Source: Macrostomum lignano (Eukaryota). Taken from it: DNA of 64,000 bases. Positions 11,695 through 62,930 of this stretch are shown in pieces (the stretch's first letter is position 1; each line of letters begins with the position of its first letter). The translations under genes and the position numbers were made by a program. The notes under the pieces are model-generated. The model ran no database searches and was not told the origin of the DNA. It was given only the letters and a program-made list of their open reading frames with translations. The stretch lies in the NCBI GenBank assembly GCA_002269645.1, contig NIVC01000854.1, positions 248,001 to 312,000 on the forward strand. Reading direction: 5' to 3'.

Positions 11695-11960
11695 GCACAT
11701 TATCTTCATCCTAATCATTAGCTTAATTCTGATCATCACCCTAATTCTGATCATGAGCTTTATCCTGATCCTCAGCTTCATCCTGATCCTCAGCTTCATC
11801 CTGACCATCAGCTTTATCCTGACCATCCAGCTTCATCCTAATCATCAGCTTCATCCTGATCATCAGCTTCATCCTGATCATCAGCTTCATCCTAATCATC
11901 AGCTTCATCCTAATCATCAGCTTCATCTTGATCATCAGTTTCATCCTGTTCATCAGCCTC
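11695..11960. repeat. 18-bp repeat (GATGAAGCTGATGAT[C/T]AG on the minus strand) spanning the TRMT10 stop codon
   Basis: Units encode DEADDQ or DEADD*. Confidence 0.9.
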
Positions 11961-12833
11961 ATCCCCAGCATCATCGCCATCAACTGCTGTATTTTCTCCG
12001 ACCACAGCGCCGCCGGAAGTTTCACCTTTGCCGTCTTTCAATTCAACAATTTTGCGTTTCGGCACCACGGCCTGCAGTGTCTGGGCCCAATCGCGGCAGC
12101 TGGAATATTTGAGCAACAGGTGAAACACCTGATCCACAGTGAGCACCTGACGAGAATTCAATTTGATGTGCTGAGAAATTGGCAGCTTGGCAGTTCGCAA
12201 ACCCAGCTGTTTGGCCAGCTCAAAGCAGTGCCCAGGATAGTGGTTATGGTCCACAAGGCCGCCAATAACATACACACAGTTATCGCTCAGCTGATCGAGT
12301 ACAGTCTCAGATTCGCTGCACAGATAGACGATCTCATCCCTAGGGAAGAGACTCAAGTAGGATTCCTCACGCCAGTTGATATCCCAGTTCAGATAGTCGG
12401 CTGTGCCAATAGATTTCAGTTTGTCAAGCAGTTTGCCATTTAAATCGGTCACATAGAGCTGCATGGGGGCTTCACTGCGCCTGTTGTAACCATAGCAGTG
12501 CTGCAGCTGGTTAAACAGCTTGCAGATGTCCCCAATCGGCATCAGTGAGTCGAATGAGCAGTCTATGACTACGCGGATTCTACAGGAACTGTCGCTCATG
12601 CTGTTTGCAGCCGCTTTGGTCAGGCGTTTGCTATGCCGCTGCGGCTTCTGACCGCTGGCTTTTAACTGTTGGCGCTTGGCTTTGCGCAGCGCTTTCACTA
12701 ATTCGCGCTTCTTTAATCGCTTCTGCGCGCGTTTTGATAGCGGCTGCTGATTGGCTGGCTGCACTGCCACTGGCTCTGTGCTGGGGGCTTCGGGCGGCGG
12801 CATCTCTGTGCCTGCATGCTCTTTGGTGTCCAT
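11910..12833 (-). CDS. TRMT10A: tRNA (guanine-N1)-methyltransferase TRM10 homologue, single exon, about 307 aa
   Basis: VVIDCSFDSLM, YGYNRR, IVYLCSES..VL, YVIGGLVDHNH..G and ARLP-like TAKLPI...RQVLTVDQV motifs of the Trm10 SPOUT domain; ATG at 12833 preferred over upstream starts. Confidence 0.9.
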   Translation of the reverse strand: MDTKEHAGTEMPPPEAPSTEPVAVQPANQQPLSKRAQKRLKKRELVKALRKAKRQQLKASGQKPQRHSKRLTKAAANSMSDSSCRIRVVIDCSFDSLMPIGDICKLFNQLQHCYGYNRRSEAPMQLYVTDLNGKLLDKLKSIGTADYLNWDINWREESYLSLFPRDEIVYLCSESETVLDQLSDNCVYVIGGLVDHNHYPGHCFELAKQLGLRTAKLPISQHIKLNSRQVLTVDQVFHLLLKYSSCRDWAQTLQAVVPKRKIVELKDGKGETSGGAVVGENTAVDGDDAGDEADEQDETDDQDEADD

Positions 12834-13873
12834 GTGCGTCTCCAAAATGCGAATTGACATTAATTTATATTTGCAGTGTGCAGTGTATTCTTGATACATT
12901 TCTCATTCTTTTTGCTCATAACTTTGGTTGTGCTTTACTTTGTATCAAAAAACTTTTCGTAATGTACAAAGTTGCACATTTTATTATTATTCAAGTCAAT
13001 AATTGCCAGTTGTGAAAACTTATTTTTAAATCTATAGATAAGGTTTGTTTCACTATGCCCAACATTAAAGATATTTTTTAAAAAAATTGCATCTTTTTCT
13101 CATTTCTCTGTGTATTTTTGTGTTTGTTTGCTATTGGCCCACAATTGGGCCATGTTTGTGTGTGTAGTATTTAAAGTGTTTTATTTAAGTTCCACAATTG
13201 ATAATTTAGGATAATTAATCTAAGAAACTGCTTTAAGCAGAATAAAATTACTAGAGAATAAGCTATAACCCTCTGATCTTAATAATTCCTACACTAAATC
13301 TCATTAGGAATGAAAAAATATTTTAATAAATATTAATATATGTATAAAACACACAAGATATACATGCATCATAGAACCATTCAAGCTAGAAATATCATAT
13401 TTAAAATGTTATTAGAAATATATAATACACTATTTAATGTTTTATATAATAAAATAATAGCTTTAGTATAAAACTGACAGCATTTAATAAAATATCCTCA
13501 AGGTTACAAAATCTCTAGGATTAATTTAGTCTGTTAGTTAGTTATAAATTTATGTGAATATGGCTCATATTAGTTTAATATCTAAATTTTTGTAATTTGT
13601 AAATATTTTCTATATTTATGCACACTTTAATTCACTAACTCTATTTCCACCGATTGCAAAACTGGGCCTGTGTCCTTAGAGCCTGGTCCTATTTGTTTGC
13701 TAAAAAATTGCTTTGTTTACCAATAGACAAAATCACTGCACACTAAAAAATATAGTCAAAAGGCAGGCTCCAGGCTAGGCATTAGGGCTTAGGCCCTTTA
13801 ATATAGGCCTAGAAATGCAGATAGCACTAGCAGGGTGCAGGATATAACAGTTATAATTATAGGTCTAATCTTA

Positions 13874-14233: not shown

Positions 14234-15497
14234 ATAGGTCTAATCTTAACCAACCATGTATTCAAAATCATACATAAACATATTTAAGTTATTCAACATA
14301 AATAGGCCTAGTATATTAGTATATAGAAGCCGGACAAGTACTCAACAGAGTACTCAACATGTCGAATAATTGATTAGGCATATTTTTTCAACTATTCAAC
14401 TGTCAAGAAATTTTTATTTAGGTCAGGTCAAGTTGAGAAGTTGAGTACTTTTAATGGGTCTATATATAGATAATATGGGGTAAATTATGTCTTTCAATGT
14501 GAGAAATTTCAGCATGGCATTTTTCTTTTTTAACAATTGTATTAGTTTCAGTTGTATTGTTGCACACATCTTGGAATTTTTTATGATACAATATATTCCT
14601 ATAAATATTTGTATGAAATGACACTATGACAGTGTGACTATAGAAAAATGTGCAGATTACATGCTCAACATTTCTCAACTACTGATGTAAGCACTACTTT
14701 ATACTTGTTGACTTTATATTGCCTTGACTTTATACTTGGCTGGCTTAACCAAAAATCTGTGCTCATTTGGCCTCTAATAGTAAATAGCATATTCATATGT
14801 ATATAAAAAAGTAAATTCTAGGCCTAGACTATGCTCAACAGCTCAAGTAATTTTCCATAGCCTAGGCTCAGTTTTGTAATATGGTTTAAGAGAGCAGATC
14901 AAATTGAGACTGGGCAGGACTGCTCAATTGAGAATATATCTAGTATATCTTTTGACTCTCTATCTGACTAGTGAATGACCTAGTTCTATTTCTTGTAAAA
15001 TGGCACGTAGGCGCACTTGTTCATTTAAACTTTAAGTGTTACCTTAAAATGGCAGGCAATTAATGGCTATTCCAGGAAACTTTAGGGCTGTTTTCCAAAA
15101 AAAGTAGGAATAAAACATGAAAAACTCCCAATGCCTATTGAGCCATAACATGTTACCATGCTACAAAATATAGTAGATTTCCACTTTCTAGGAAACTATC
15201 TCTAATGTGCAATAGCTATATCAACTATAGCATTATATATAGCACAGACTAATTTTTATTAGATAGATATATTGAACCAGTATGATACTAATAGTGCATA
15301 ATAGTAGTAGTAATTGGCTAAGCTAACACCAATAGCAGTTATAAATGGTAGACAGTAACTAAAGGTAATAAAGTTGCTAGCTAAAGTTAAATCAAATATA
15401 TCTTGGCTTTTAAGTTTTGCATCTTTTTTACTAAGCATCAAGATTATCCTAATATTATTTTCTTTTTTTGCTATATAAAAAGGGCTACAAAGGATAT

Positions 15498-16383
15498 TGA
15501 AGTGAGCACTAGTTTAGTGTTAGGTGCCCCCTTTGTCAGCTGTGCCCTGCACCCTTCTGAGCTGTTGGCTGCAGCTCTCCCTCCCTCTCCCTCTCCTGCT
15601 CCCTTTCCCTCTCCCTCCCATTGTCCTTTTGCCTGCCTCTGCTCCTCCCTTTCCCCCCCTTCCGGTTTGTCTCTGTTCCCAGTGTCTGAGCTTCTCCGCT
15701 CAGCCTGTCCTTGATTCATTGTCTGTCTGGCCTTCCCCCCCCCCGCTTTCTTGTGTGGCTGCATTTGTTCTCTCTGTCTGGCCTGTACAGTAGCAGATCA
15801 CGTGCCCTAGTCGCTCTGTCCCTTTCTTGTGCTGCCTTGTACAATCTTGGGTGTCAGTCTCTAAATTTGAAATAGCGTCCTTGTCTCTCAGGCAGGGCTC
15901 CGCACTTAGAACTGAATTATGCCAGGTGAGGGGCACAGTAAGAGCGGCCTTGCGCACTCTGGCGCAATGGGGTGTTGCACGGTATGGTGAAATTGATCCG
16001 CTAGCCTATAAGTACAGGCCTCTTGTGCCTCTGTTTGGCAACCCTTCTGTTAACCTTTCTCTCTGCTAGCGCTCAGATAACCACTCTCTTAAAAGTCCAG
16101 CGCAGCCTGCGCTAGGCCTTAGCCAACCTATCTGATTTCTGATCCATCTTCGACTGTGTGTCTTTGAGTGTGCTAAATCCCAACCAAACTAACAGAGACT
16201 AGCATAGTTCCTCATCCCCACACTTGAGCCCGGCAGGACTGCTGACAAGGTGTGCACCAGTACGAACTGTTAAATCTGCACGGCGTGCTATCCGGAGTCT
16301 CCCTCTTCAAAGGACAAGATCCGAGCGAGCTGGTGGCAGCACTACCAACGCTACTAAGAACAGCTAGAAGGCTTCCTGGGAGA
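15498..16383 (+). repeat. 5' LTR, 3'-truncated by a deletion that joins it into RT
   Basis: Colinear with 24415-25341 until CTGGGAGA, then switches to (T)AFSVIDRGQF RT codons. Confidence 0.92.
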
Positions 16384-19300
16384 TGGCGTTCTCTGTGATT
16401 GACCGCGGACAATTCTGTTTCAATGTTCTACCAATGGGTCTCCACGATAGTCCAGGCAGCTTTCAGCGTTGCATCAATAAGCTCCTGGATGATCTGACAC
16501 CAAAGGCTACATGGATGACATCATGGTGCACTCAGTGACCTTCGAGGAGCAGCTAGACAACCTGCGGACTGTACTCCAGCGGATTATCGCAGCCAACCTC
16601 AAGGTCAAGCCGAAAAAGTGCCATTTGTTCCTCAAGGAGCTGCATTATCTAGGTCACATCGTGACTCCCGACGGACCGAAGACCTGTGAGGACAAGATTG
16701 CGCATATCCGTGATTGGCCTGTGCCATAGTCTGTTACTCAACTGAGACAATTCCTAGGCCTCCCCAATTACTACCACAAGTTTGTCGACGGCTACGCTGG
16801 ATATGCTGCGCCGCTGCATGCCCTGACTCAAAAGGACATCGGCAGCCTGCGGCAGCATTGGACTGATGAGCACCAGGTAGCGTTCGACACGTTGAAGAAG
16901 AAGTTGTGTTCGACTGAAGTTCTCGCTCTGCCTGAGTTCAACTCAGATCCTGATGTGAAGTTTGTCCTAGACACTGATGCCTTAGACATTCGCATAGGCG
17001 CTTGTCTTGGACAACGGCAATCTGACGGCGTCGAGCGCCCAATTGCATTCTTTAGCCGGAAGTTTCGTGATCCTAAGAAGCGCTACACGGTTACGAAGAA
17101 AGAGCTGCTTGCAATCGTGGACGCTATGCGACATTTCTGTCATTATTTAATTGGCAAGAAGTTTGAAGTTTGTTCTGACCATCTGGCCTTGCTGTAACTG
17201 CTGAACCAGACGTAGGTCACAGGTATCTTGGGCCATTGGATTGAGCGACTGAGCGAGTTCCGCTTCCAGCTTCACCATCGCAAAGACAAGGACCACGCCA
17301 ACGCTGACGCCTTGTCAAGACGCCCGGAGCACCACCGGTTGACTTTGAGCCTGGCCGATTGCTTGAGCATCCCAATTCTGCAGCCCAACACGATGATGAC
17401 ACCAGCTTGGAGCCGGACAGGGAAACCACTCGGAAGGCCACTGCAAGACCAGCCCTTTCAAAGAAGGTCCGTACTCACAACAAGGAGGCCAAAACTGCCC
17501 TGGCCAAAGACCTGAAGGCCACCGCGCCAGCAGCCCTTCAGCACGACGACTATCGCAGCAGTCAATGCCTGGAGACTGGCTTGGACACCAACCCGGAGGC
17601 CACTGATACCTCAGCCCTCCACAGCGATGCCAATGCCAACTGCCATTACTTGGAGATTCGCCCGGACAAAACCACGGAGGCCACTACTGACGTAGACCTC
17701 CTTGATGATGTCCAAGACTGCGAGTCTTGGAACCTGGACTCGCCCATGGACCACGACTCAGAGGCCACTGAACAAGCAGCCCTCCTGACGACAGCCCACA
17801 ACGCAGATCCAGAGCAACAATGTAAGTTCAACCCCCGGAGTTTTGCGCTGAGAGTTCTTGCCATGTTGACAGAGGCCAGACTCTCGCGACGGCTGCAAGG
17901 TCAACGCTCTGCCCCCCAAGCCGACAGACAGCTGCTCATCGCCTGTGCGGAAAGTCGAGTCTCCCTTTGCGATACCCCCCAGTGCTGGAGAAGACTCACC
18001 CAATGACGACGATGATCGAGCCGATGGCTACAGCTGCCTGCGACGAGGCGTGCTTCACGTGTTGCGTCTCGCCCTACAGCCAAGAGTCGCCTGGGCTGTG
18101 CAGTGGAGGCAAGTGCACTGCTCCAGCTGCGGAAATTCCTGTCAAGAGAGCGACGATGAGAACTTCGAAATGAGATCAGCGATCATACGCCGACATTGTG
18201 AGACAAAGTCCCTCAGAGCGACCTAATCTCGACGCCAACAAGACGGAGTCGCGTGATCAACTGCGAGCCAAAGAAGCGGAGACTGCGGGAGTCATGAACC
18301 CTCAGCCATGCCGCGCTGTGCTCACTGATTTTCTGAAGTTGCCGATGACGCGGCAACAGTTTGTTGACGCACAGCGCGCTGACAGAGCTATCAGCTACGT
18401 GCTCAATCTGGTCAAGAACGAAGCCCTGAAGCCTGAGTTTGATGCCCGATTGCGCCTATTGAAGGAGCAGCGGAACCTGCTCGGTTATTATGAGAATTTG
18501 CGAGTGGAGGACAACCTGTTGATGATCAACCTAACTGACGGTCAGCAGTCCCCGAAGGTTGTCCTGCCCGAAGCCCTCAATGCCCAGGTGCTCCAGGAGC
18601 TCCACAGTTCGCCACTGTGTGGTCACCTAGGCCAGACAAAAACGCTGAAACGACTGCGAGAACGATTCTGGCGGCCTGGATAAGCCCTTGTCACCGAGAA
18701 TTTTATCAGCAGATGCCGTGCCTGTCTCGAAAGCAAATCGCGAAGGCAAGACAAAGTTCCAGTTCAAAGCTTCCTAGTCTGCAAAGTACTAGGAAGAGTA
18801 CATTGCGACGTAGTAGGCCCTATTGCCCAGAAGAGCAAGAGCGGGAACCGCTACATATTGACCTTGTGCGATGCAACGTCGAAGTACCCATTTGCCTACC
18901 CGATGAGGAACCAGAAAGCCAAGACCATCATCAAGATCCTGCAGGAGCGCCACATCCCAGATGTTGGTGTACCCTGCTGGATCCACACGGACCAAGGCAC
19001 CAACTTCACTGGCTCCACCTTCAAGAAGTTCTGCAACCTGTTTGGCATTCGACATACTACAACAACACCACAAAACCCAGCTTCTAATGGTCAAGTTGAG
19101 AACCTCAACAAGCAGCTGAAGAGCGTTCTCAACTGCCTCCTCGAGCGAAACCACGATGACTGGGACACCTTCCTTCCAGCCTGCCTGATAGCTCTCCGCT
19201 CTAGTGTACACCCGGTGACAGGATTCACGCCCCACTACCTGGTGTTTGGTCGTGATTTCCGACTTCCAATTGACAACGCGTTGAAGAAGCTGCCTGAGTA

Positions 19301-19670
19301 TGCCGACTTGCCTGACTATGTCAAGGACTTCCAACGCCGTCTGGACGATGCCACTGAGCTAGTGAAGGATCGTCTACACCTCCATCAGCAACTGCGAGAC
19401 GAACACTACTCCAACCTGCCGAAGGCCAAGAAGCTCAAGCCCGGTGATCTGGTTTTCCTCAACAACCCAGTTCTCGAACTGGACGAGGTGGCAAAGTTTC
19501 ATCGACCCTGCAAAGCACTCTACAAAGTCAAAATTAGAACAAAATTTGCCGTAGACTGCCCAATCCGCAAGCCAGACGGGATGAACTTGTTGTTCATCGC
19601 CGCAACCTGCTCCACGTTTCTGACGCTGACTACGCGATGATTTCAGATCCCAAAGTCGAGAAGGCGAAGA
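16384..19670 (+). pseudogene. Gypsy pol remnant: RT, RNase H, long linker, integrase
   Basis: YMDDIMV, LHYLGHIV, FVLDTDA...RPIAFFSR...KELLAIV, HANADALSR, LHSSPLCGHLG, IHTDQG.NF, NGQVENLN; several stops and frameshifts. Confidence 0.92.
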
Positions 19671-22050
19671 CCCAGTGAAAAATGATTCATGGATTCCACG
19701 TGGGTTCCACGTGGCCATGTGGAATTTAAATGTTTCTTTAATTTTTGCGAATTAATGACTTAAAGATGACATAATGGTATGCAAAGTATTTTTTATGCAT
19801 TATTTTTTTTATTTTTACTGTCCTAATGTTGATGTGGATTTTACAAGGAATTCATGAGAAATAAGCGTATATTGATTCAACATGGAATCCACTTCGATAA
19901 AAAACTGTGATACACCACATTCAGACGTTTTTATGAAATTAATAAAATTAATTATTATATTTATACGCTTTTAAGTAAAAATTACTATCTTAAAGCTAAA
20001 TTATAATCGAATAATAAGACATTGTTTGTTAAAATAGACAAAATAGAAGTGAACAATAAAAAACGTTTCGTGCTTTTTAAAATTAAATTAATTTTATTTT
20101 ATTCGTCAATGTCTTGGTTCAAGGCCTTGAAAGATAAATTGCCTTGTTTATGGCTATCTAAGCACCTTAAAAATTTTAGTAGACCTAGCCTATAGGCAAT
20201 AACTTATAAGGCCATGGCCTTTTTAACTTAAATAGGCCTTTAGAAGTTCATAATTTCCTCTTAGTCCTACCTATCTATTTATATGTATGCTATTTTAAGC
20301 TAGGCCTATAACTATCAATTTAGGTCATTCTATTTTAATTAAGGTTGGGACTAGCTTGACTTTGTGAATTGTGACTAGTCAATCTAGTTAATCTGTTAAA
20401 AATCTATTAATTTATGATTTTCTTTAAAAAAGCCTGTTAGCATCTTTTGGACTTGTTGCATTTTTAAAAACAATATTATTAATTATAATAAATAATTCTG
20501 CAATTACACTTGCAACTTGCTTTTGGCATAGCTAGCCTAGCAGATCCCTAAGGTTGCTATTATAAATAAATAATGATTATTGTAAATTTGATCTGATTTA
20601 GACCAAGTCTAGAATTTAATAGCCATAGGGCATAGCTATTTAGGCTTAGGCCTAATGTTTAATCATACTAGGCCAGCAAATATAAAAAACATACATTGCT
20701 TTGCCTAAATACTTTATAGTCTAAAATCAATTTTAAAATAAAAAATTAAATTTATAGAAACATATATTAATTATTTTTATACTTATTATTTCATTGGTAA
20801 TTTTATTGATTGACTTAGGTAGGGTTTTCTTTTTTGCTAGAGACAGGGTGCAAAATCATACCCTATGCTCACTTTCAGGGTTTTATGATTTTAAGGCTTA
20901 GAATGCTATTTCTCTTTTTTCTTATATAAAGGCAGTGCAAATAAGGCTTCAATAGAAAAATAGGTAATGAGATTGCACCTAAACTGTATCCACTTTTTAA
21001 TTTTAATTTTCAAGGTGCAATTTTAAAATTTAGGGTGCATACGCACACTTTGTGCATAAAAAATAAACCTAGGACTTAGGCCTAGTTAATTTTAAAATAA
21101 ACTTTAATAAGTATTCATCCTTAAATTAGTTTTATGAATAATATCAATATAATCTATCAATCTTAATTGGCAACAATTATTTTTCTATTTCATTTCAGCC
21201 TAACATTACATGGCCCATCCTCAAACTTGGATGTCACCTTGGTCTTGCCTTTGAAGAAGCATGCAAAGCTACTTGGAATTTGAATTTAATATCTAGAATG
21301 CTAGGCCTACCTTTTGTGAAGCAATGGTAAGTTTTAGTTATAAACAGATTTTTTTCTGTCATCAAAATCTGTTATAAGATCAAAATCTATCAAAATCTAT
21401 TACAAAATGTGTCATCAATCTGTTATGAAATTCTGTAATTTAACCCCTTTCTTTTTTAAGGTTGCTCACCTGACCTGAAGAAGCAGCATTCTGGCAATAG
21501 GCAGCAGCATGTTTCTGACTGTTCTAATTCTGGTGCATTATATTATTGTTAATTAATTAATGCTATTGACAAGGTCAATTTAAAATTATATATTATATCA
21601 TATGCGCAGCGCAACTTTAAAGATATCAATATCTACATCAGTGTGTTTATTCTTTGTGTGCCAGTGACTCACTACTGTACATAAATACACCTTACTTATT
21701 GAGACATCCTTTTTGAATAAATATTTTGTGCAGAAATATTTTTGGCTATAGCTAATGTTTTTATCTGTGTTTCAGTTTCTTTTATATGGTATTGAGATCT
21801 GGGGTTTGTATGACATTTTGAGATCTGGTATTATTTTGAGATTTAGGATGCAACAATTTATTATGGCAACCAGTATAATGGCTGCTTACTCAATGACAAT
21901 GTGGATTCTATGTGAAATACATAATTATTTCCATGTGGATTTTCCATGTGGAATCTATATCTTGATTCCACATGGATGGACGGAGACAAATGCACATATG
22001 GATTTCATATGAAAAATCCACATGGAATCCATATCATTTTTTTCACTGGG
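19671..22050. mobile_element. Non-autonomous TIR DNA transposon (CMC/EnSpm-like) inserted in the Gypsy integrase tail
   Basis: TIR CCCAGTGAAAAA-TGA..ATGGATTCCA.GTGG at both ends, 2-bp TSD GA, subterminal CCA(C/T)GTGG repeats; removal restores the frame ...DPKVEKAK-KRRQQLDD. Confidence 0.85.
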
Positions 22051-22748
22051 GAAGCGCAGACAACAGCTAGATGATCCCGACAGTGCAGGACCCGCGACCC
22101 TGCCACCCATGCCCAAGGATGAGCTCGAAGATCCCGAAGACGACGAGGATGACGACGTGAGGCCGGCTCTCTGGTGGTACTTCTGGCCTCTGGCGATCCC
22201 GGAGGTGTAGCCAGGAGGTGGACCGATCACGACACCAGTGAACCAGGCAAGTGCACTTCGGCATGAGCCAGTGCCGTATGGTGAATGCCACTTGCGTGAG
22301 CCTGTTTCAAATGCATCTTTTGCCTGCTGCTTCTTTTTCACCCGTCCATGTCCCTACTCCCCCCGAACCTCTTGCTGCGGTACAGTCTCGTGTACCATCG
22401 CCATGCACCACTCCGGTGGAAGCGCTTGTAGAGCCTGTAGGTTTAGGTAGGCCAGCTAGGGACCGTAGGCCTCCAGAGAGGCTTCTTATTAGCGACACTA
22501 GGCCGCAAACGTACGCTAGTTGCACCGCCCGCATGCGCGCACAAAATTTAACTCATTTCAGCGAAGCAATGCATCACTCGCGCCCACCAAAGTGAGCTGA
22601 CCGCTCGAGCTCCGACGAGCGAGAGCGAGGCCGATCCCGACTGGCTTTCTGCTCAGCGTACCAAGGCCCCACGATCGGAGCAGCCGCCGGCCAAATTGAA
22701 GGTGCCCCGCGACTGGCTGCAGCCCCCCGGGTCCACCCTCGACTCCGG

Positions 22749-23771
22749 TTGGGCCCGCAGGATCGTGGGAGGTCCCAGATGCCTCAGCCAGGCCATCGGT
22801 CACCACCCTTGGAACCACAGGACCCCGCGCCGGCTCGAACACGCCACCCACTCCGCCGACGCGGCAGGCGCACAGTGTCCCCAGCCCCAGAGATCATCGA
22901 CCTCACCCGAGATTTGCCCCAGCAGGTTTGCCGGCTGAGGGATCCCGGGCCAAGCAGCGATGGATCCACGACACGCCACCTTCAGGCAAATGGCCCCGCC
23001 ATCCTTCGCACCCAGTTTCTGACGCAGGTGCCCAACAAGCTCCCCCAGCCTGCAACCCGCGGCCTGCCACGGGTGTCCAGCCCGGTGATGTTGAGCGAGC
23101 GACGGCCTAGCGCGGCCGGCCCGACGGCCGGCGAGTGCCCGAAAGAACTCAACAGCAGTTCCTACTCCATTAGGCCGGCTCCCGAAGCATCCAAGCTGCC
23201 GCCAAGTGAGACCTTGACCCCGGCCAACCAGTCTCTGCCACCGGCAGACATGGCTACGCAGACCTCGGATGCGGACTTTTGGAGCGACAATGAGGCCACT
23301 TATTCGTGGAGCCAGCTTGCTGCGGAGCTCCAATAGGCTCTGCCCGTGGCCCCACCGCCATCACCCACCGTCCCGACGCCAGTTGAAGATGCTGAAGCCC
23401 AAACAGATACGTTGTTGGACCCCCAGGAGGTCTTGCCGACCCCGGCCACCTTGGTCCAAGATGCGGCCGCAGACCTGGCCAGCTACCTGATCTGCACTGC
23501 AAGCACTGGCAAATGGCCGGCCTTTAATGACATCTTCTGGCCTCTTCTCCGAGCAGCACCGGACCACATTCGCCAAGCCAAACTCAATATAGCGGCAGAA
23601 ATTGCTGCCCCAGGCCTAGCCGCGGCATCCCACCCAATGGCGGTACAGGTGGTCGCCTGCCAGATGGCTAGGGAAATGACTGGCCTCCCGCTGACTGTCC
23701 CGGGGGCCTTAGCGTCTCAGTTGAGCTGCCAAGGAAGACCCTCACAGACTGTGAGACCGTCGAACAATTGA
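22749..23771 (+). pseudogene. Extra sense ORF in the Gypsy 3' region (about 340 codons, one in-frame TAG at 23334-23336)
   Basis: ORFs 22749-23336 and 23346-23771 share a frame; Pro/Ser-rich with EIIDLT; no env-like TM segment. Confidence 0.55.
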
Positions 23772-24414
23772 AGTTTGCTGCGTAGAGCCCATGAACCCTT
23801 TTTAAACCTATCCAGGCCTCCCATCTGTTGGCTTAAATCCTAGTTTGCCCCTTTTATTTTCCGCCATTTGGACAGTCTGAGGACTCCCTTGTTGTGCCAG
23901 CATCAGTTGCCCGGTCTGTGACCCGGTTTCCGGTAAGGTGCACCCTATCTGGGTCCCGCATTTCTAGATTGTCGTTGGCTGCGCCCCCTTCTCTCTTGCT
24001 GCTCACCCAACTATTGCTCATCATGCATTTTGACCCTCCCCCCTTTTGTGCATGCTCCCCAGGGCTCTGCCAATTGACTCCCGGCATCCCATCAAACATA
24101 TTTAGGTGCCCTTTTGTTTTATGTTATTAGTCGGGCCGGCACCCCTGTCATTAATTTAGACAATTAACAGGGCGTCAGCTTGCATTTTAAATTCAAAGTC
24201 AGTTTAAACTCCCATTTACTTAGCATTACTGCATTTACACTCAATTTGATCAGGTCAGCTGGTTATTAATTCAACATCACATCTCCTGCTCAATCTTTTC
24301 AGGTGGAACTTTTGTCAACTTTATGTTGCCTAATCTCAATTAAGGCCAAATATTTTTTTGTTTTAAATAAAGTGGCTACGCTTCCACTCTGCCTTATCAT
24401 TTGAACAGGGAGAG

Positions 24415-25569
24415 TGAAGTGAGCACTAGTTTAGTGTTAGGTGCCCCCTTTGTCAGCTGTGCCCTGCACCCTTCTGAGCTGTTGGCTGCCGCTGGCTGCA
24501 GCTCTCCCTCCTTCTCTTTCTCCCTCTCCTGCTCCCTCTCCCTCCCATTGTCCTTTTGCCTGCCTCTGCTCCTCCCTTTCCCCCCCCCTTCCGGTTTGTC
24601 TCTGTTCCCAGTGTCTGAGCTTCTCCGCTCAGCCTGTCCTTGATTCATTGTCTGTCTAGCCTTCACCCCCCCCTCTTTCTTGTGTGGCTGCATTTGTTCT
24701 CTCTGTCTGGCCTGTACAGTAGCAGATCACGTGCCCTAGTCGCTCTGTCCCTTTCTTGTGCTGCCTTGTACAATCTTGGGTGTCAGTCTCTAAATTTGGA
24801 ATAGCGTCCTTGCCTCTCAGGCGGGGCTCCGCACTTAGAACTGAATTATGCCAGGTGAGGGGCGCAGTGAGAGCAGCCTTGTGCACTCTGGCGCAATGGG
24901 TTGTTGCACGGTATGGTGAAATTGATCAGCTAGCCTATAAGTACGGGCCTCTTGTGCCTCTGTTTGGCAACCCTTCTGTTAACCTTTCTCTCTGCTAGCG
25001 CTCAGATAACCACTCTCTTAAAAGTCCAGCGCAGCCTGCGCTAGGCCTTAGCCAACCTATCTGATTTCTGATCCATCTTCGACTGTGTGTCTTTGAGTGT
25101 GCTAAATCCCAACCAAACTAACAGAGACTAGCACAGTTTCTCATCCCCGCACTTGAGCCCAGCAGGACCGCTGACAAGTTGTGCACTAGTACGAACTATC
25201 AAATCTGCACGGGGTGCTGAGTTCTTGTGTCTCGTTTATTTCACTTAGCCCGGAGTCTCCCTCTTTGAAGGACAAGATCCGAGCAAGCTGGTGGCAGCAC
25301 TACCAACGCTACTAAGAACAGCTAGAAGGCTTCCTGGGAGAGTCTACCAAGAGCTCAAGGTAGGCAGCTTGAGTGACTGAGTAGGAAGCGCCAAGCAACT
25401 ATACTTCACTGGTGGCAGCGGTGGGATTCCAAGACCTATGGCTAGGCCACCCAAGACAAACTAAAAACCACCAACAACTATACTTCACTGGTGGCAGCAG
25501 TGGGATTCCAAGACCCATGGCTAGGCCACCCAAGACAAACTAGAAACCACCCAAAACAACTGTACTTCA
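24415..25569 (+). repeat. 3' LTR including two terminal PBS-containing tandem units
   Basis: Matches the 5' LTR; ACTTCA end motif at 25403-25408, 25482-25487 and 25564-25569. Confidence 0.9.
25410..25429 (+). promoter_or_regulatory. tRNA-Leu primer-binding site (second copy 25489-25508)
   Basis: TGGTGGCAGCGGTGGGATTC is complementary to the 3' end of eukaryotic tRNA-Leu(AAG/TAG), ...GAATCCCACCGCTGCCA-CCA. Confidence 0.85.
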
Positions 25570-25859
25570 ATATATTGTGATTATTATTAATATTAGCTAT
25601 TATATATATTGATACTATTTATCAATATTTTATTTTTATGTTTATGCTTGTGGACCAAGTTATTATTATTAATTTATTCTAATCTAATATACAAAATATG
25701 ATAATCTAATAATAGCTCAAACTATCAATTAGGTAACAAAAGTTCTTTGCATTTATTCAATTGAAAACTATCTATATTTTCAAGTTAGTTAAAATGTAAA
25801 TATAGGCCTATATGAATATTAGGCATGTAGCTAAAATTCTTATCAAAGGGGACTTAATC

Positions 25860-28621: not shown

Positions 28622-30719
28622 TTACAAGCATGCAATGAACCCAACTGTTAGTAACTAAAAACTGATTAACCTTAAGCCGAAACTAACCAACTAACCTAAG
28701 TAAACTAAGCTACTTTGCTGCCTACTAATAAGACCCAGAAATTATCGTTTTCCAGTTATATTCATAATCTCATTTTTTGTCATCCAGAATCAAATATAAA
28801 ATATACAACCCGAAAAATACAAATTCTAGATTGGTGTTTTGTGTCTATGGTAAAAATACATCCCGGAAAAGAGCTTTGCAGGGATTTAAAAATAGTTAAA
28901 CAATAATTTGATATTTTAAAATTTATATTTAAATCATATAATACAAAGGAAAGAAGTATTATAAAAAGTTAGAGTTAAAACTTATATGTCTCTTGATAAG
29001 CTTAAACCAAAGTTGAAAATATAAAAAATAGATTTTAGCTGTTTAACTTGTTTAATTAAACAAATCTAACTTAGGCCTAGCTTTGAGTTATATTAGGCCT
29101 AACTTAGATTAGATATATGACCTTTGTATACCATTACAAAAGAGGCTTCTTAGCTAGATCTAGAATATTTTTATAATAGGCCTTATAAATATATATAATA
29201 ATAATATTCATATAGAATAGGCCTAAGCCTAAAATATTAATTTAAAATTATCAATGATATAAGCCCAATTGCAACAAATTTTCTTTTATTTATATTGAAA
29301 AAGGCTTTGTTCATTAATAAATCACTTTATTAGAAATATCACATTTTTAAATTATAACATTTGTTATACTATATGAATATTAGAAATGCATATTTTATAT
29401 ATTTTATATTTTGTCATTTTGTTTTAAATAGCAAAGGAAATTTTAGCATAAATAGGAGATAGCTAAAGACTAAACCAAATAAATTATGGTAAGTTTCATT
29501 GTATTATTCTTCTTTTTCCTTGCCTTTGAGCTTTATAAAAGTTAGAAATAGGCCCAGGGCTTGTATTCCCTCATGTTAATTATTTCAAGTATTAAATAAG
29601 CCTAGTGATTTAGAAATAGCCCTAAGATTGAGAGAATTTAATCCATTCCTAGAAAACAAAGTATCTAGATTTAGAATCTAAGAAATTGCCTTTAGGAGGC
29701 AAAAATCTTATCATAGGCCCTAGGGTAAAGTAATCTAGACTTAGAGTCTGAGAAACCTATTTTAGGGTAGAATACCCAGCAAATAACACCCAAGACTGAG
29801 AGAATAATTTTTTTAGAGGAATTTAGGGATAGGCCTAGACACTAAGGGCCTAGGCCTATAAGACCACTCAGGCCAAAAATAGGGCCTATAGTATATGTAA
29901 ATAGGCCTATGCTACCAGTAGGTAAATACATGCACTACGACTACTACCATGTCTACCAGTAGATAAACTGATAGACCTGTTAACTGGTATTAAAATAAAA
30001 TCAATGGCAAAAGATTTCTATTAGGCTAAATCAAGGGCCTAGCTTAATAGCCTTTTAATCACTAGCTTAAAATATATAATTATAATTGAGACAAGCCTAG
30101 ACCGATCTTGAAGCTGAAGCTTTACAAAATAAAAATTTTGTTTTTACTATTTTGTATAAAAAACATATATTAGACATTATTGTAGGGTATAATATGTACC
30201 AATATATTGTGATATTTCAATTTTAAGCTAGGGGTAGTAGGGCCTAGCATTTGAAATTTTTGCAGCACTGCCAACTAAGCAACAACAAAGCAACTACACT
30301 TGCTTTCTTAAGTGTAGGCCTAAGTCATAGTCATAGGTCTGGAACACCATGGCATATCAGGCTTTTAAGGCCATTTATATTATATTGAAATATCACATAT
30401 TTAATAGCCTACTATAGATAGAGTGGTACACATAAAATCTTAAGTCGTCCTTGAAAACCAAGTCTTATGGGGGGGGCTAGTGACTGGGTTATCTATAGTT
30501 ATACTATAGACAGTGGATAGAGGCTTTTTAGTGGATTCCATTATACTAATAATACTAGTGCTAGTGGTCGTGGATAGTATAGTGGATTTTTAGTTATATA
30601 ACATATATTATAAATTCTTTCATAGAAAACGGAATTCTACCCGTATTCTATACGGTAACATGCTACGGCTCGATAGATGGGTGCTGACCAGTTCGGCGAC
30701 AAACAAATTCGGCGACAGA

Positions 30720-30980
30720 GGGCCTTTTCATATTACCAATTCCAGAACCAGAATCGGTTTGGAATTCCAAGAAAAACAGCAGTATAACTATTAAACTCTG
30801 TTAATATTTGACTGCCTTAACAACCTCACTTAGCACAATTTTTTCAAATTCTTTTTGGCGATTGTCATTCAATAATAAAAACTTTATAGCACGTATCTCC
30901 CTCTAGTTATGGAGACAAAAAGTTATACTTCACAAATTGGTTCTGGTTCTGGAACCAGAACAAGCAATATGAAAAGGCCC
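30720..30980. mobile_element. Harbinger-like MITE nested in the left TIR region of the MULE-like element
   Basis: TIR GGGCCTTTTCATATT; TSD AGA (or CAGAG if the termini are GGCC); the empty site GCGACAGAGATTCAC survives in the host's right arm. Confidence 0.75.
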
Positions 30981-31519
30981 AGAGATTCACAATGGACTAA
31001 TTCGGCGAAAGCAAATTCGGTGACAATCTAGGCAAATTCGGCGACAATTAATCAAGGAGAAACAATTGCGTATGATTTGAATAATTCCTTTTGTAGAATG
31101 GTATTTTATAATGCAGATTAGCTTTCTCTTTTTAACTGAGTTTGTTTTATCTATCATTTATTCTTAGTGAGTCCTTTCCAAGACAAGTCCTTTCCAAGAA
31201 ATATTCAAATTTCAGGCTGAGCGGCCTGAAATTATGGTGGTGGCAGCTCTACCCTACTGAAAGTAACAAGCTCAGCAAATCGACGCATTAATCTACGGTG
31301 TCAAAATCTCGGTGTCTACCATTTGAACGACCGCGCCGCCACACGACCGCACCGCTACGATACGACTATCCTCCCCCCGGAATTTGAGGACCCCGGCAGT
31401 CGGAGTAAAACAGGAGAAATAGTTTCGTTGTGATTCGTCTGCGCGACATCTCCGGATTTATTCGTGCGAACGCAACGCCGGCAGGAATTCAAACGTGGAA
31501 TCCGCCCCCACCTCAATTC

Positions 31520-31975
31520 GGGGCGCTTTCATTAGGCCGAAATTTCACTTCGCCGAAAAGCAGCCTCTTTCACTAGGCCGAAACTTCATTAGGCCGAAAC
31601 TTCACGTTGCCGAAATGACTAGCACGCTCTTTAATTCATAAGGCCAAAACTTCATTAGGCCGAAACTTAACACTTTGCCGAAAAATCATTTTAGCAGCCT
31701 CTTTCTCACTAGGCCGAAACTTCACTAGGCCGAAACTTCACTAGGCCGAAAAATCATTTTAGCAGCCTCTTTCACTAGGCCGAAACTTCACATTGCTGAA
31801 AAATCATTTTAGCAGCCCCTTTCACTAGGCCGAAACTTTCGGCTTAGTGAAGTTTCGTCCTTCTGAAAGAGCGTGCTAGTCATTTCGGCAAAGTGAAGTT
31901 TCGGCCTAATGAAGTTTCGGCCTTGGGAAGATGCTTTCGGCAATGTAAAATTTCGGCCTAGTGAAACCCCCCCCC
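31520..31975. mobile_element. Second MULE-like MITE nested in the host
   Basis: Termini GGGG..TTTCA.TAGGCCGAAATTT; 9-bp TSD CCTCAATTC (31511-31519, 31976-31984); internal TAGGCCGAAAC repeats. Confidence 0.8.
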
Positions 31976-32169
31976 CCTCAATTCATCATGAGTGTCAGCA
32001 ACCGACCGATTTCAAGTCAAACCCCAAGTTTAATTTTCTTTCTCCACCCCACCTCATTTGCTTTAACTTGTCTTTAATTAGGCTAGCTATAAAAAGACGT
32101 GTCGCTGAATTTGTCGCCAAAGATTTGAATTGTTTGAATTGTTTGAATTGTTTGAAATTGTTTGAATTG

Positions 32170-32640
32170 TTTGAATTGTCGCCGAATTTGCCTAGATTGT
32201 CGCCGAATTTGCCTAGATTGTCGCCGAATTTGCCTAGATTGTCACCGAATTTGCCTAGATTGTCACCGAATTTGCCTAGATTGTCACCGAATTTGCCTAG
32301 ATTGTCACCGAATTTGCCTAGATTGTCACCGAATTTGCCTAGATTGTCACCGAATTTGCCTAGATTGTCACCGAATTTGCTTAGATTGTCGCCGAATTTG
32401 CCTAGATTGTCGCCGAATTTGCCTAGATTGTCACCGAATTTGCCTAGATTGTCACCGAATTTGCCTAGATTGTCGCCGAATTTGCCTAGATTGTCACCGA
32501 ATTTGCCTAGATTGTCACCGAATTTGCCTAGATTGTCGCCGAATTTGCCTAGATTGTCACCGAATTTGCCTAGATTGTCACCGAATTTGCCTAGATTGTC
32601 ACCGAATTTGCCTAGATTGTCGCCGAATTTGCTTTCGCCG
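32170..32640. repeat. 21-bp subterminal array (GAATTTGCCTAGATTGTC[G/A]CC)
   Basis: About 22 units; about 2 inverted copies near 31000-31050. Confidence 0.95.
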
Positions 32641-34332
32641 AATTAGTCCATTGTGAATCTCTGTCGCCGAATTTGTTTGTCGCCGAATTTGCGTGCATCC
32701 TCGATAGACATCGGGAGTTTTCATGTTTTACGCCTATTGCCGATGTTTATGGAAAACATCGGTACGGTTGCCCATGGAGCATCTTGCGTGATTTTCTGAA
32801 TTTCTATTAGCTAAGTTGTTGTATTGTTAATAATTATTTTGCTCTATTTTTAGTCACGCGTTATTCAAAGTACTTCTTAGTTTAGAGTTTATTTTTAGTG
32901 TGAACAGGCCAAAACAACCAGACGCAATTCAAGTCAAGTGACTCAGCGGAGGGTCGACAGTTTTCCAGTGTACCGCTTTGCGCGGCCAGCCTATCAAGAT
33001 CGTTCTGGACCCCTGGCACGTGGCAAACAAGTTCTACCCGGCCTGAGAGAGCGCCGCGGGTTCAATGCAATCTGGATTAGCAAGCGGCCGGCCAGACACC
33101 CACCACCCGGCTTGAAGGGTGGTTTGGAAGTGACTATATATAGGAAAGTGTTTTGGCGGTTCTCTTCTGCAGTTTTCGGCTCCTCTGGTTTGTTTCATCT
33201 CCCAGCCGTTTTGCCATCTGCCGTGCTTTGAGGCGCTTATTCGAGTTGAGCCCCGGTCTTTACTTTGTCCCCCCTGCCCGACCGCAATAGCCTTGCTGGC
33301 GTAACACTCGCGATAAACTTGTCCAGAGAGTGTCGTTGGCAAGCGCGGTTTAGACAGGAACTGACAGTTTTGACATAGTACGCGACCTCAATCCCGAGGG
33401 CCTCAGTGTTGCACTGAAGGGCAGATCTAGTAGAATTTGGCCAGAGATTCACTGAGAACTGTTAATCCGTGTCAGGGTCCTCGCCTGAGATCGAGTAGGC
33501 TTTGGGATTAGGCCAGTGGTTAGGTAGGGAGTTTTCTCCGTGGTCCTTGTTCGGTTTCTCCTTCTTTCCGTCTTCTTCCAGAGCTGAGATCCGCTCACCT
33601 AGTTGCGTCAATCATATTTATATCAATAATGTCATTAATGTGTTATTCTGACTGTGTGTACTTCGCTACTTTGCTACGCCGGGCCAGTCGGCCGTTCTCT
33701 CCCCCCTCCTCAGATATTTTCTGACTCACCCACCTGCAATTCTGCGCGTGCTTACCCCCCTCCCTGCCCAGGCCTTTTCCGTTTAGTCAAACCCCCCCCC
33801 CTTGCTCTGTGTGCGCCCCGTGCGACCCCGCCCCATTCTTTTGTTAGCTTTGCTGCCCCGCACCTGTTTGTGATTGGCTGCCAGTCCCAGTCTGCCGTGC
33901 TGCGCCCCGGCGATTGGCTGGTACGGCTCATGTTTTTCCTATGCTGATGTCTAAGCCCCCTTTTCTGCCTTTATCCCGCGCCCTCACCCCCCAGTTTGCT
34001 GCCTATTTATTCGGACCCCCTTGAGACCCCATTCTCGTCATCTTCGTGGCTCCCCGGTGATTGTGCCAGCGTTAATTGCGATACAAATACAATTAAAAGA
34101 ATATCGATCAATACTACGAGTACCACTGCTCTGACGGCGCTGTGTCTTGTTGTACGACCGAAATCGCGGCTGGAAAGCCTTCCAATTTGCAAGTCATTTG
34201 GGTCTGCCCAAAGTTTAAGATTAAGTGCGTCGTACGCCGGTCCCACCCCAAGCAGCTCTGCGTCGTACGCGAGTCTGTAGGCTGTCGTGCGTCGTACGCT
34301 CGAGCAGCCTAGTCCCGACGGACACCGCGTCG

Positions 34333-35370
34333 AGTGACAGCTGGAGCGATTCTGAAGTCCACTGTTACACTGACGGCTCTATGAAGCATGGTCTTTCAGG
34401 CTTCGGAGCGTGCGTCTTCTTCAAGGGAGAAGTGGCGTGGAGCTACTCCCAGCACACTGGGCTCAACTCCAGTGTTTTTCAGAGCGAGGTGCTTGCCATC
34501 AGCTCCTGCGCGGCAGAACTGCGCCGAAGGCAGCTTAGCGGTCGGAAGCTTATTTTTCACTCTGACAGCCAAGCAGCCCTTCGGGCCCTCTGCCGCTGCA
34601 CCACCAGCTCCAGGTCCGTCCTGGACTGCAACACCCAGCTCAACGGGCTTGCGCTAGGCAACCAGGTAGAGCTCAGATGGATCCCGGGCCACGCCGGTTT
34701 CCTCGGCAACGAGCGCGCCGACCTGCTGGCCAAGGCTGGCTCCGCCGGCGCGTTGCTGGGACCGGGCCCGGGGCCCCCATCCCCGCCTCGGTGATCAACT
34801 CCCGCGTTAAGCGCTGGGCTGACTCCGAGCATCTCCGCAGGTGGCACGACACCCGGAATTGTAGGCAATCCCGGGCGGCCGTCCCCTGCCCCTCCCCTCT
34901 CCTGCGTAGAGCCCTCCTCAGGCTCAACCGCAGAGACCTCAGAGCAGTTAGCATGGCCCTCTCCGGGCATGGCTGCTTCTCTCGCCACCGCTTCCTTCAG
35001 GGCCAGGTACCCGAGGAGCGGTGCCCCTTCTGCCGCTCAGGCAGTGAAAACGCCGAGCATTTTATCTGCCACTGCCCGGTTTTCACCAGGGCCAGGCTCA
35101 CTCACCTCGGGCCAAACCCGGTTCTCTCCGACGTTTGCAGGCCCGAGAGCATCCCGCCGCTCGCCCGGTACCTCAGGGACACGGGACGAGCCGATTTCTT
35201 CCCCACTGTCGGTGAGGAGGATCGCGCTGCAGGCGAGACCGACGGGTCCCCCTGAGCGACTTCACTTCAACGGAAGTCATTGGTCGCCAGGGGCTAGCGG
35301 AATGGGCGGTCTCCTCCGCCTCCCCGCTGCATCCGCCGGACGCCCCCTGCAGCTAAGTCAAGTAAGTCAA
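34333..35370 (+). mobile_element. 5'-truncated non-LTR retrotransposon (Loa/R1-group-like), RNase H plus C-terminal zinc finger
   Basis: CYTDGS, VFQSEVLAI, IFHSDSQAAL, WIPGHAG..GNERAD, LSGHG...CPFC...EHFICHCP; AGTCAAGTAAGTCAA tail; 12-bp TSD GACACCGCGTCG. Confidence 0.9.

Positions 35371-58664: not shown

Positions 58665-62930
<4,266 letters not shown>

Follow-up and report, generated by a model that had tools for sequence, protein, structure and literature searches.

Long terminal repeat ends stacked with tRNA-Leu primer-site modules in Ty3/gypsy-type elements of Macrostomum lignano

Introduction

The junction at which U5 meets the primer-binding site (PBS) of an LTR retrotransposon is taken as single and fixed, since it sets both the start of the primer and the end that integrase uses. 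In the stretch of Macrostomum lignano DNA analyzed here (the window: 64,000 nucleotides, positions 248,001 to 312,000 of the forward strand of contig NIVC01000854.1, assembly GCA_002269645.1; all coordinates below count from its first letter), the 3' LTR of a decayed element ends in a short array of such junctions, each with a PBS and a new att-like end. This locus raises the question of whether the array belonged to the DNA that was integrated or arose afterwards at this one site, and, if it was integrated, which of the several primer sites is used and how the array changes.

The window element and its stacked LTR end

A decayed Ty3/gypsy element occupies window positions 15498-25569, with ATAT flanking both outer ends. 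Its features, all on the + strand, are as follows, with the basis of a row in brackets where there is one to name.

15494..15497, +, 5' copy of the target-site duplication (TSD), ATAT (sequence)
15498..16383, +, 5' LTR with its U5 end missing (a deletion joins the LTR to RT sequence)
16384..19640, +, broken pol remnant; gag and the start of pol missing (Pfam)
16730-17197, +, RNase H within the pol remnant (Pfam)
18174-19640, +, integrase zinc finger and core within the pol remnant (Pfam)
24403..24414, +, polypurine tract, PPT (sequence)
24415..25569, +, 3' LTR, TG...CA, 1155 nt including both modules (PPT directly upstream)
24936, +, TATA-like motif in the 3' LTR (sequence)
25289..25304, +, inner half-PBS with a 10-nt match, then a short arm (sequence)
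25396..25408, +, first att-like end, unused in the window insertion (sequence)
25409..25487, +, module 1: spacer C, PBS, arm, tail, second att end
25410-25427, +, PBS of module 1, exact 18-nt tRNA-Leu match
about 25435-25451, +, anti-PBS arm of module 1 (predicted fold)
25475-25487, +, second att-like end, closing module 1
25488..25569, +, module 2: spacer C, PBS, arm, tail, att end
25489-25506, +, PBS of module 2, one G>A
about 25514-25530, +, anti-PBS arm of module 2 (predicted fold)
25557-25569, +, third att-like end, the one used for integration
25570..25573, +, 3' TSD copy, ATAT (sequence)

An earlier note on this locus had described three LTR ends and two PBSs, with a TSD behind the outermost end only. 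The three att-like ends (25396-25408, 25475-25487 and 25557-25569) and both PBSs (beginning at 25410 and 25489) lie where it had placed them, and ATAT follows the third end alone, the first and second being followed by CTGG. Spacing from att to att is 79 and 82 nt. The PBS is exactly complementary to the final 15 nt of tRNA-Leu(AAG/TAG) genes plus CCA, with 12 such genes in the genome, and its two matches in the window compare with 0.14 expected (0 of 100 shuffles reach two). The att 13-mer, with two mismatches allowed, occurs three times against 2.44 expected, a count that alone is not above chance, so the evidence for these ends comes from their position. The roughly 50 nt after each embedded PBS had been labeled as leader, a label that we drop because the true leader, found in relatives behind the outermost or boundary PBS, is a different sequence; the module middle consists instead of an anti-PBS arm and a variable tail.

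Because its LTRs are only 96.2% identical (886 ungapped columns), the window copy is not young, and because its 5' LTR stops at 16383, before the array, the comparison of 5' and 3' arrays was made on relatives. Its pol remnant is 89% identical in DNA to the internal region of one of these. Contigs of runs X14 and X15, from different studies, match 25423-25630 with 0 differences and span module 2 and its flank. Traits of Ty3/gypsy elements comprise RNase H before integrase in the window remnant, TG...CA LTRs, a PBS, a PPT and a short TSD, and the best match of the RT to a solved relative is Ty3 (E=1e-82), a grouping by best matches and not by tree; the closest named RT-RNase H relatives by identity (58-59%) are proteins of the flatworm Macrostomum lignano. 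In a sister-family copy, L033, RT, RNase H and integrase lie within one frame, and a zinc knuckle above cut-off and a weak Retrotrans_gag match lie upstream of pol. No env family was matched by Pfam among the four ORFs of L033 and the 13 window ORFs scanned.

Farther inside the LTR, a motif similar to the half-PBS at 25289 stands in the equivalent place in three families, and the short arm behind it could pair with it, as judged by eye. TTTATT (AATAAA on the opposite strand) also stands in the same place in the window LTR (25235-25240) and in the L033 LTR (position 824), forward AATAAA being absent from both LTRs scanned; it is a possible antisense poly(A) signal. The modules may lie in R instead of U5.

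Several other features of the window were recorded. Inside the element, an AT-rich insert at about 19690-22050, absent from relative L122, carries TGGATTCCAC-type motifs near both ends and is possibly a nested DNA transposon, and between integrase and PPT (22596-23771, +) lie two GC-rich frames, 246 and 144 aa long, which are mostly unshared with L122 and gave no match in a Pfam scan. A frame with a tRNA (guanine-N1)-methyltransferase domain (11910-12902, -; PF01746, E=2.7e-27), 2.6 kb from the element, is likely a host gene or exon. RT and RNase H frames at 55630-58302 and 59486-62633 (+) are likely of non-LTR type, and about 34350-35260 (+) looks by eye like the 3' fragment of a non-LTR element, with no Pfam match in the two frames scanned. 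Within the inverted repeats that bound the element at 30679-32700 lie a 21-nt array, nested inverted arrays of 16 nt and, near 31237, a half-PBS motif resembling the inner relic of the LTRs. Unrelated minisatellites of 14-45 nt are packed very densely throughout the window (1-64000; 95 rows).

Modules as heritable and optional parts of related LTRs

Across families the module measures 62-86 nt, with a spacer base, the tRNA-Leu PBS, about 45-65 nt and a new att end. The exact att+PBS pattern has 279 matches in the genome, and loci were fetched for most of the first 100 listed; exact copies of one module core number 221. A second Leu-type PBS motif has one match in the genome, and tandem Leu PBSs gave 0 matches in two scans of viral contigs.

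The window's own family (family 1) was collected by its exact LTR-start pattern, which yielded 54 sites, 53 of which were examined after the truncated 5' LTR of the window was left out. Modules number 0 in 7 LTRs, 1 in 33, 2 in 11 and 3 in 2; six of the seven LTRs with none are truncated or interrupted, and the seventh (L105) looks whole. The position of the TSD was testable in 31 module-bearing LTRs whose 5' flank is known and which no leader follows, and it stands directly behind the last module in 24, whereas seven lack it there, one of these matching at an inner end. The assembly contains duplicated regions, as many insertions are present on two to four contigs; family 1 loci include duplicates of one insertion, and the 24 TSD-positive loci amount to about 19 independent insertions. 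The 5' LTRs of family 1 are followed by one more PBS and then by a leader unlike the module middle. The earlier note had proposed exactly these comparisons, of unit counts with TSD position and of intact 5' LTRs with what follows them, and both came out as it expected; the contrary pattern, in which other copies would end with their TSD at the first att, is not that of the window's family.

A one-off event at the window locus, whether a duplication after insertion, a tandem insertion or an assembly error, draws its only support from the age and rearrangement of this copy, as seen in the divergence of its LTRs. Set against it are the 279 exact att+PBS sites and 221 exact module cores, the TSDs behind the last module in many insertions and the agreement between contigs of two studies, and its probability is negligible. 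That LTR ends stacked with primer-site modules are real and heritable we regard as practically certain.

The modules extend to a sister family (family 2), which shares 82% DNA identity with family 1 in the internal region, 70% over the LTR end and little elsewhere in the LTR. All 63 leader-defined 5' junctions of this family, once duplicates and inner tandem LTRs were removed, represent 51 insertions, with no module in 29, one in 16, two in 5 and four in 1. Modules are thus optional, since more than half of these insertions have none. Related LTRs bear 0-4 modules overall, and the module-bearing elements are coding and 8-10 kb long.

Variant structures were also observed among these loci. At one insertion site, a solo LTR is present on one contig (L095) and a two-LTR element on another (L099/L100). 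The subfamilies of L093, L095-L100, L030 and L044 carry half-PBS units (11-nt match), with a middle like that of an intact module in L044, and farther in an arm-like segment without its PBS. Three-LTR tandem elements within one TSD occur at G000:C4250, C3668 and C1903/C2137, the last LTR of C1903/C2137 having a different U5 end and one module. In L038, L050, L058 and L074, the leader behind the boundary PBS is made of short GATTCGA-type tandem repeats, like the complement of the tRNA T-loop.

Which primer site is used

In the standard scheme of LTR reverse transcription, as outlined in PMC7472051, the end of the 3' LTR is the att adjoining the PBS that primed. Paired elements with both LTRs on one contig, a TSD and at least one module were tallied by hand (n=22), comprising 15 of family 2, six of or near family 1 (C757, C2701, C130, C4250, C423 and C723) and C440 of a third family; 3' LTRs that were not reached, duplicates, C362 (TSD mismatch) and one pair split over two contigs were left out. 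Module counts at the 5' and 3' LTRs are equal in 20 of the 22, the 5' LTR then being followed by one further PBS. These equal counts, with the TSDs behind the last module, bear out the earlier claim that the modules belonged to the integrated cDNA. Under the standard scheme they also lead us to infer that the boundary PBS primes, and outermost priming is, on this reading of the sequences, very probable.

The same symmetry holds where the boundary PBS is bulged and the inner PBSs are exact. This bulge, a 2-nt insertion, is present in 40 of 67 boundary PBS contexts versus 0 of 147 embedded contexts, 118 of which match over all 18 nt. The predicted duplex with the tRNA is -26.8 or -33.7 kcal/mol for a bulged boundary PBS versus -39.8 kcal/mol for an exact inner one. 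The bulged PBS works nonetheless, because module-free, TSD-flanked copies carry it as their only PBS. One locus, L065 (G000:C255), has ahead of its bulged boundary PBS a module of only about 34 nt, consisting of PBS and then att with no arm.

Two elements are asymmetric. L150 (TSD TAAT; 1 difference in 996 nt) has one module at its 5' LTR and none at its 3' LTR, which could fit inner priming, gain at the 5' end or a deletion over a shared 7-nt suffix (microhomology). C440, with two modules at the 5' LTR and one hybrid module at the 3' LTR, would fit deletion between repeats better than landing on a PBS. Inner priming therefore fits at most one of the 22 elements (L150, with deletion as the alternative), and the inner PBSs appear to be seldom used. 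The earlier note had further proposed a self-extending LTR, into which priming at a downstream PBS would copy upstream PBS units. Copying of this kind survives the comparison, as outermost priming would carry inner modules into both LTRs of the symmetric elements; a one-way ratchet does not, given the 29 module-free insertions of the sister family and the fact that both asymmetric elements are poorer at the 3' end.

A predicted hairpin over the embedded sites

When folded, the module middle pairs back on its own PBS, with z of only -1.9 and -1.2 against full shuffles, and the same fold of 12-14 bp is predicted in most module variants. Opening an embedded PBS is predicted to cost 14.6 kcal/mol versus 10.6 when the 40 nt downstream are shuffled and the PBS kept fixed, and opening a boundary PBS 9.7 versus 9.8 kcal/mol. 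Masking reaches p<=0.05 in 26 of 53 embedded contexts versus 1 of 25 boundary contexts (40 shuffles each, near-exact PBSs only; the 53 include four metagenome rows, 0 of 4 significant), and these module counts are not independent, since the variants are related. In this test masking is absent from module type L044 and from the marine metagenome modules described below. When 32 variants with an exact PBS are aligned, 96.6% of 384 cells of the arm pair, compared with 20-54% in slid registers; the pair is kept in 22 cells that changed and is absent from 13. Because the PBS strand of this alignment was chosen invariant, no two-sided pair change is possible and the shuffle control is empty; moreover, C>T and A>G, which keep a wobble pair, are frequent as mutations in general, and it was on the same sequences that the structure had been worked out. 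On these folding predictions, masking of the embedded PBS by its arm is probable, with less assurance than outermost priming.

The modules might instead have been kept by selection as a shield, the arm of the last one pairing with the boundary PBS and hiding it from 3' fragments of tRNA-Leu until the tRNA anneals in the particle, the bulge of that PBS being a second route to the same end. The lowest-energy fold of the L033 junction does pair the arm with the downstream PBS (ensemble frequency 0.005), but the centroid fold pairs it with its own upstream PBS. Exact-length boundary PBSs are present in 9 of 22 module-bearing versus 4 of 28 module-free insertions (p=0.051), a borderline association among lineages that are not independent. 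Some subfamilies retain an arm without its own PBS, and mismatched PBSs dominate mouse ERVs, which the account in PMC7472051 reads as escape from tRNA fragments. Taken together, we consider such shielding of the boundary site improbable.

An even less probable function is that the extra PBSs act as a sponge for fragments of tRNA-Leu, which had been raised with the first description of this array, or recruit extra tRNA primer. The abundance of exact embedded matches would suit this, as would the pairing of the arm region with tRNA nt 1-27, which is better than in shuffles (p 0.003-0.07). This range was picked after the match had been seen and the pairing shares bases with the self-hairpin, so it is not claimed here; two unrestricted tests of module or leader pairing with the tRNA body were negative (90 modules and 11 leaders gave a whole-duplex mean z of -0.13 to 0.98, and 10 local-alignment tests a p of 0.02-0.77). 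The predicted fold-back, by which embedded PBSs would be harder to open than boundary PBSs, argues against the sponge, and this part of the earlier proposal is not upheld.

How the arrays change

The modules occur in the orders A-B, B-A, B-C, C-B and C-C, and one tail was found behind four different upstream ends. In L032 and L154, which have a TSD and are 99.7-99.9% identical in the upstream LTR, the two LTRs nevertheless have different U5 ends, an indication of two RNA templates. The upstream end and the module are the same in L180 and L212, whereas the boundary PBS is bulged in one and exact in the other, a contrast that suggests re-templating of the PBS from the tRNA. According to the account in PMC7472051, such re-templating takes place in retroviruses and not in Ty1/Ty3, which do not inherit the tRNA copy, so the landing of plus-strand DNA considered here requires a clade unlike Ty1/Ty3.

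These patterns can be placed in a stepwise mechanism, the starting point of which is seen directly, namely the TSD behind the last module and the 5' LTR richer by one PBS. As the symmetry of 5' and 3' arrays suggests, tRNA-Leu would prime at the boundary PBS, and minus-strand strong-stop DNA would copy the inner modules into both LTRs. Each embedded PBS, predicted to pair over 12-14 bp with the arm behind it, would rarely be used. Plus-strand strong-stop DNA would then end in the 18-nt copy of the tRNA and could pair with the complement of any PBS, whether on its own minus strand or on a co-packaged one; landing at an embedded site would alter the number or order of modules and leave a tRNA-exact PBS in the embedded position. 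The absence of bulges from all 147 embedded PBSs favors landing of a tRNA-copied end, as simple exchange should sometimes move the bulge inward. PBS landing is somewhat better than evenly placed to be the main route of array change, and ordinary template switching and slippage probably contribute too. Modules are thus likely added, dropped and swapped during reverse transcription, and the array is probably tolerated instead of needed.

Decayed inner units are found in the form of the half-PBS units and the inner relic, and in the marine contig L145, although the mismatch of the window lies in its outer module. As a lead, older modules may decay inward as on a conveyor.

The tails vary most. 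From 81 family-2-type insertions, a sample enriched for module-bearing LTRs by the choice of loci, 49 units were recovered with 33 distinct 16-nt tails, and these units differ pairwise by 0.29 on average in the tail, by 0.042 in the core and by 0.011 in the PBS. Most variable tail positions have two main letters. Reassortment is almost free in the stretch of 11 nt that precedes att, where all four combinations are present at 20 of 21 site pairs (46 tails), compared with 34 of 183 pairs within 9 nt in the upstream LTR (36 LTRs). Reassortment of tails could come from primer hopping at initiation, from patchy repair of heteroduplex or from repeated mutation at sites held to two letters.

An ordinary VNTR in U5 would account for several of these observations. 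One ancient duplication of the U5 end and PBS would have been followed by copy-choice switching, slippage and unequal exchange, the PBS being simply the longest shared stretch and the hairpin serving only to render extra sites harmless. Identical tandem modules (L018/L019, L176 and L085), the hybrid module and 3' loss at C440, the module-free majority of family 2 and the four-combination signal in the upstream LTR are what such a history predicts; the confinement of the bulge to boundary PBSs, the disagreement between the U5 ends of the two LTRs in young copies with a TSD and the recurrence of this layout, with another module, in the marine contigs are not, and we judge it unlikely. We give a probability of about 0.65 to the model as a whole, in which the LTR ends in a variable number (0-4) of modules, the outermost site primes, inner PBSs are folded shut and the array changes during reverse transcription.

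Similar modules in marine contigs

A scan of metagenome contigs recovered three marine contigs whose modules, 60-63 nt long, share the PBS and have a spacer of 3-4 nt and another middle, one that bears a hairpin; because these modules differ from those of this genome, the contigs are likely from another host. The first, L144, consists of a 48-nt palindrome of the module's own end and five modules, with TSD GCAT, and is about 360 nt long with no PPT. In L143, two modules stand behind a longer LTR-like stretch, and a TSD was looked for there and not found. The three modules of L145, of which the inner two have decayed PBSs, are followed by a further PBS. Closely similar modules are found behind three unrelated first LTRs.

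Tentatively, and with a probability well short of even, the PBS-arm-att module may be a hitch-hiking cassette that has attached itself, in at least two animal lineages, to the ends of various LTR families. The tRNA-copied PBS that ends plus-strand strong-stop DNA would then be a universal joint, and the tRNA primer with its first few nucleotides would hop between PBSs, reshuffling the attachment end for integrase.

Comparison with known systems and significance

A search of open-access papers found no description of natural PBS/att arrays in LTRs. The U5 of ERV-9/LTR12 has tandem repeats of about 70 nt said to hold tRNA-binding-like sites; the same search found no description of these sites, and, if present, they would be the nearest precedent and lower the novelty of the present arrays. 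Engineered retroviral vectors with two PBSs reportedly undergo frequent dual initiation, to judge by the title of Voronin and Pathak 2004 (J Virol). Both have two primer sites per RNA, but the inner sites here are natural, have their own att ends and are apparently seldom used (at most 1 of 22).

Like Ty3/gypsy elements (Metaviridae), those studied here have gag, a pol with RT, RNase H and integrase in this order, TG...CA LTRs, a PPT, a PBS one base past the LTR and a 4-bp TSD; unlike elements with the usual single U5-PBS junction, they carry further copies of the att/PBS junction, together with a fold-back arm, within the LTR. The strict inheritance of the PBS described for Ty1/Ty3 in PMC7472051 contrasts with the exact and bulged boundary PBSs of matching copies (L180 and L212). 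Tandem-array TRIMs, Cassandra and biv-TRIM, as presented in PMC7215508 and PMC6934838, likewise have repeated LTR-end/PBS junctions within one TSD, and template switching is proposed there as well. TRIM and Cassandra elements, however, are non-coding, less than 1 kb long and repeat the whole LTR and internal domain (PBS and PPT in canonical TRIMs), whereas the present repeat is 62-86 nt, without LTR start or PPT, in coding elements of 8-10 kb. In mouse ETn/MusD/IAP, by the account in PMC7472051, the commonest working PBS departs from the tRNA and exact forms are scattered among relatives, as in the sister family, but the departure here is a 2-nt insertion, with exact but apparently masked spare sites upstream.

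LTR finders that stop at the first CA and PBS would misplace the LTR ends of such elements, mistake solo LTRs for truncated 5' ends and overlook the TSD. Natural spare U5-PBS junctions are present in young copies, many of which have LTRs that are 99-100% identical, and each insertion would then record both the PBS that primed and the place where the plus strand landed. [quoted passage not shown]
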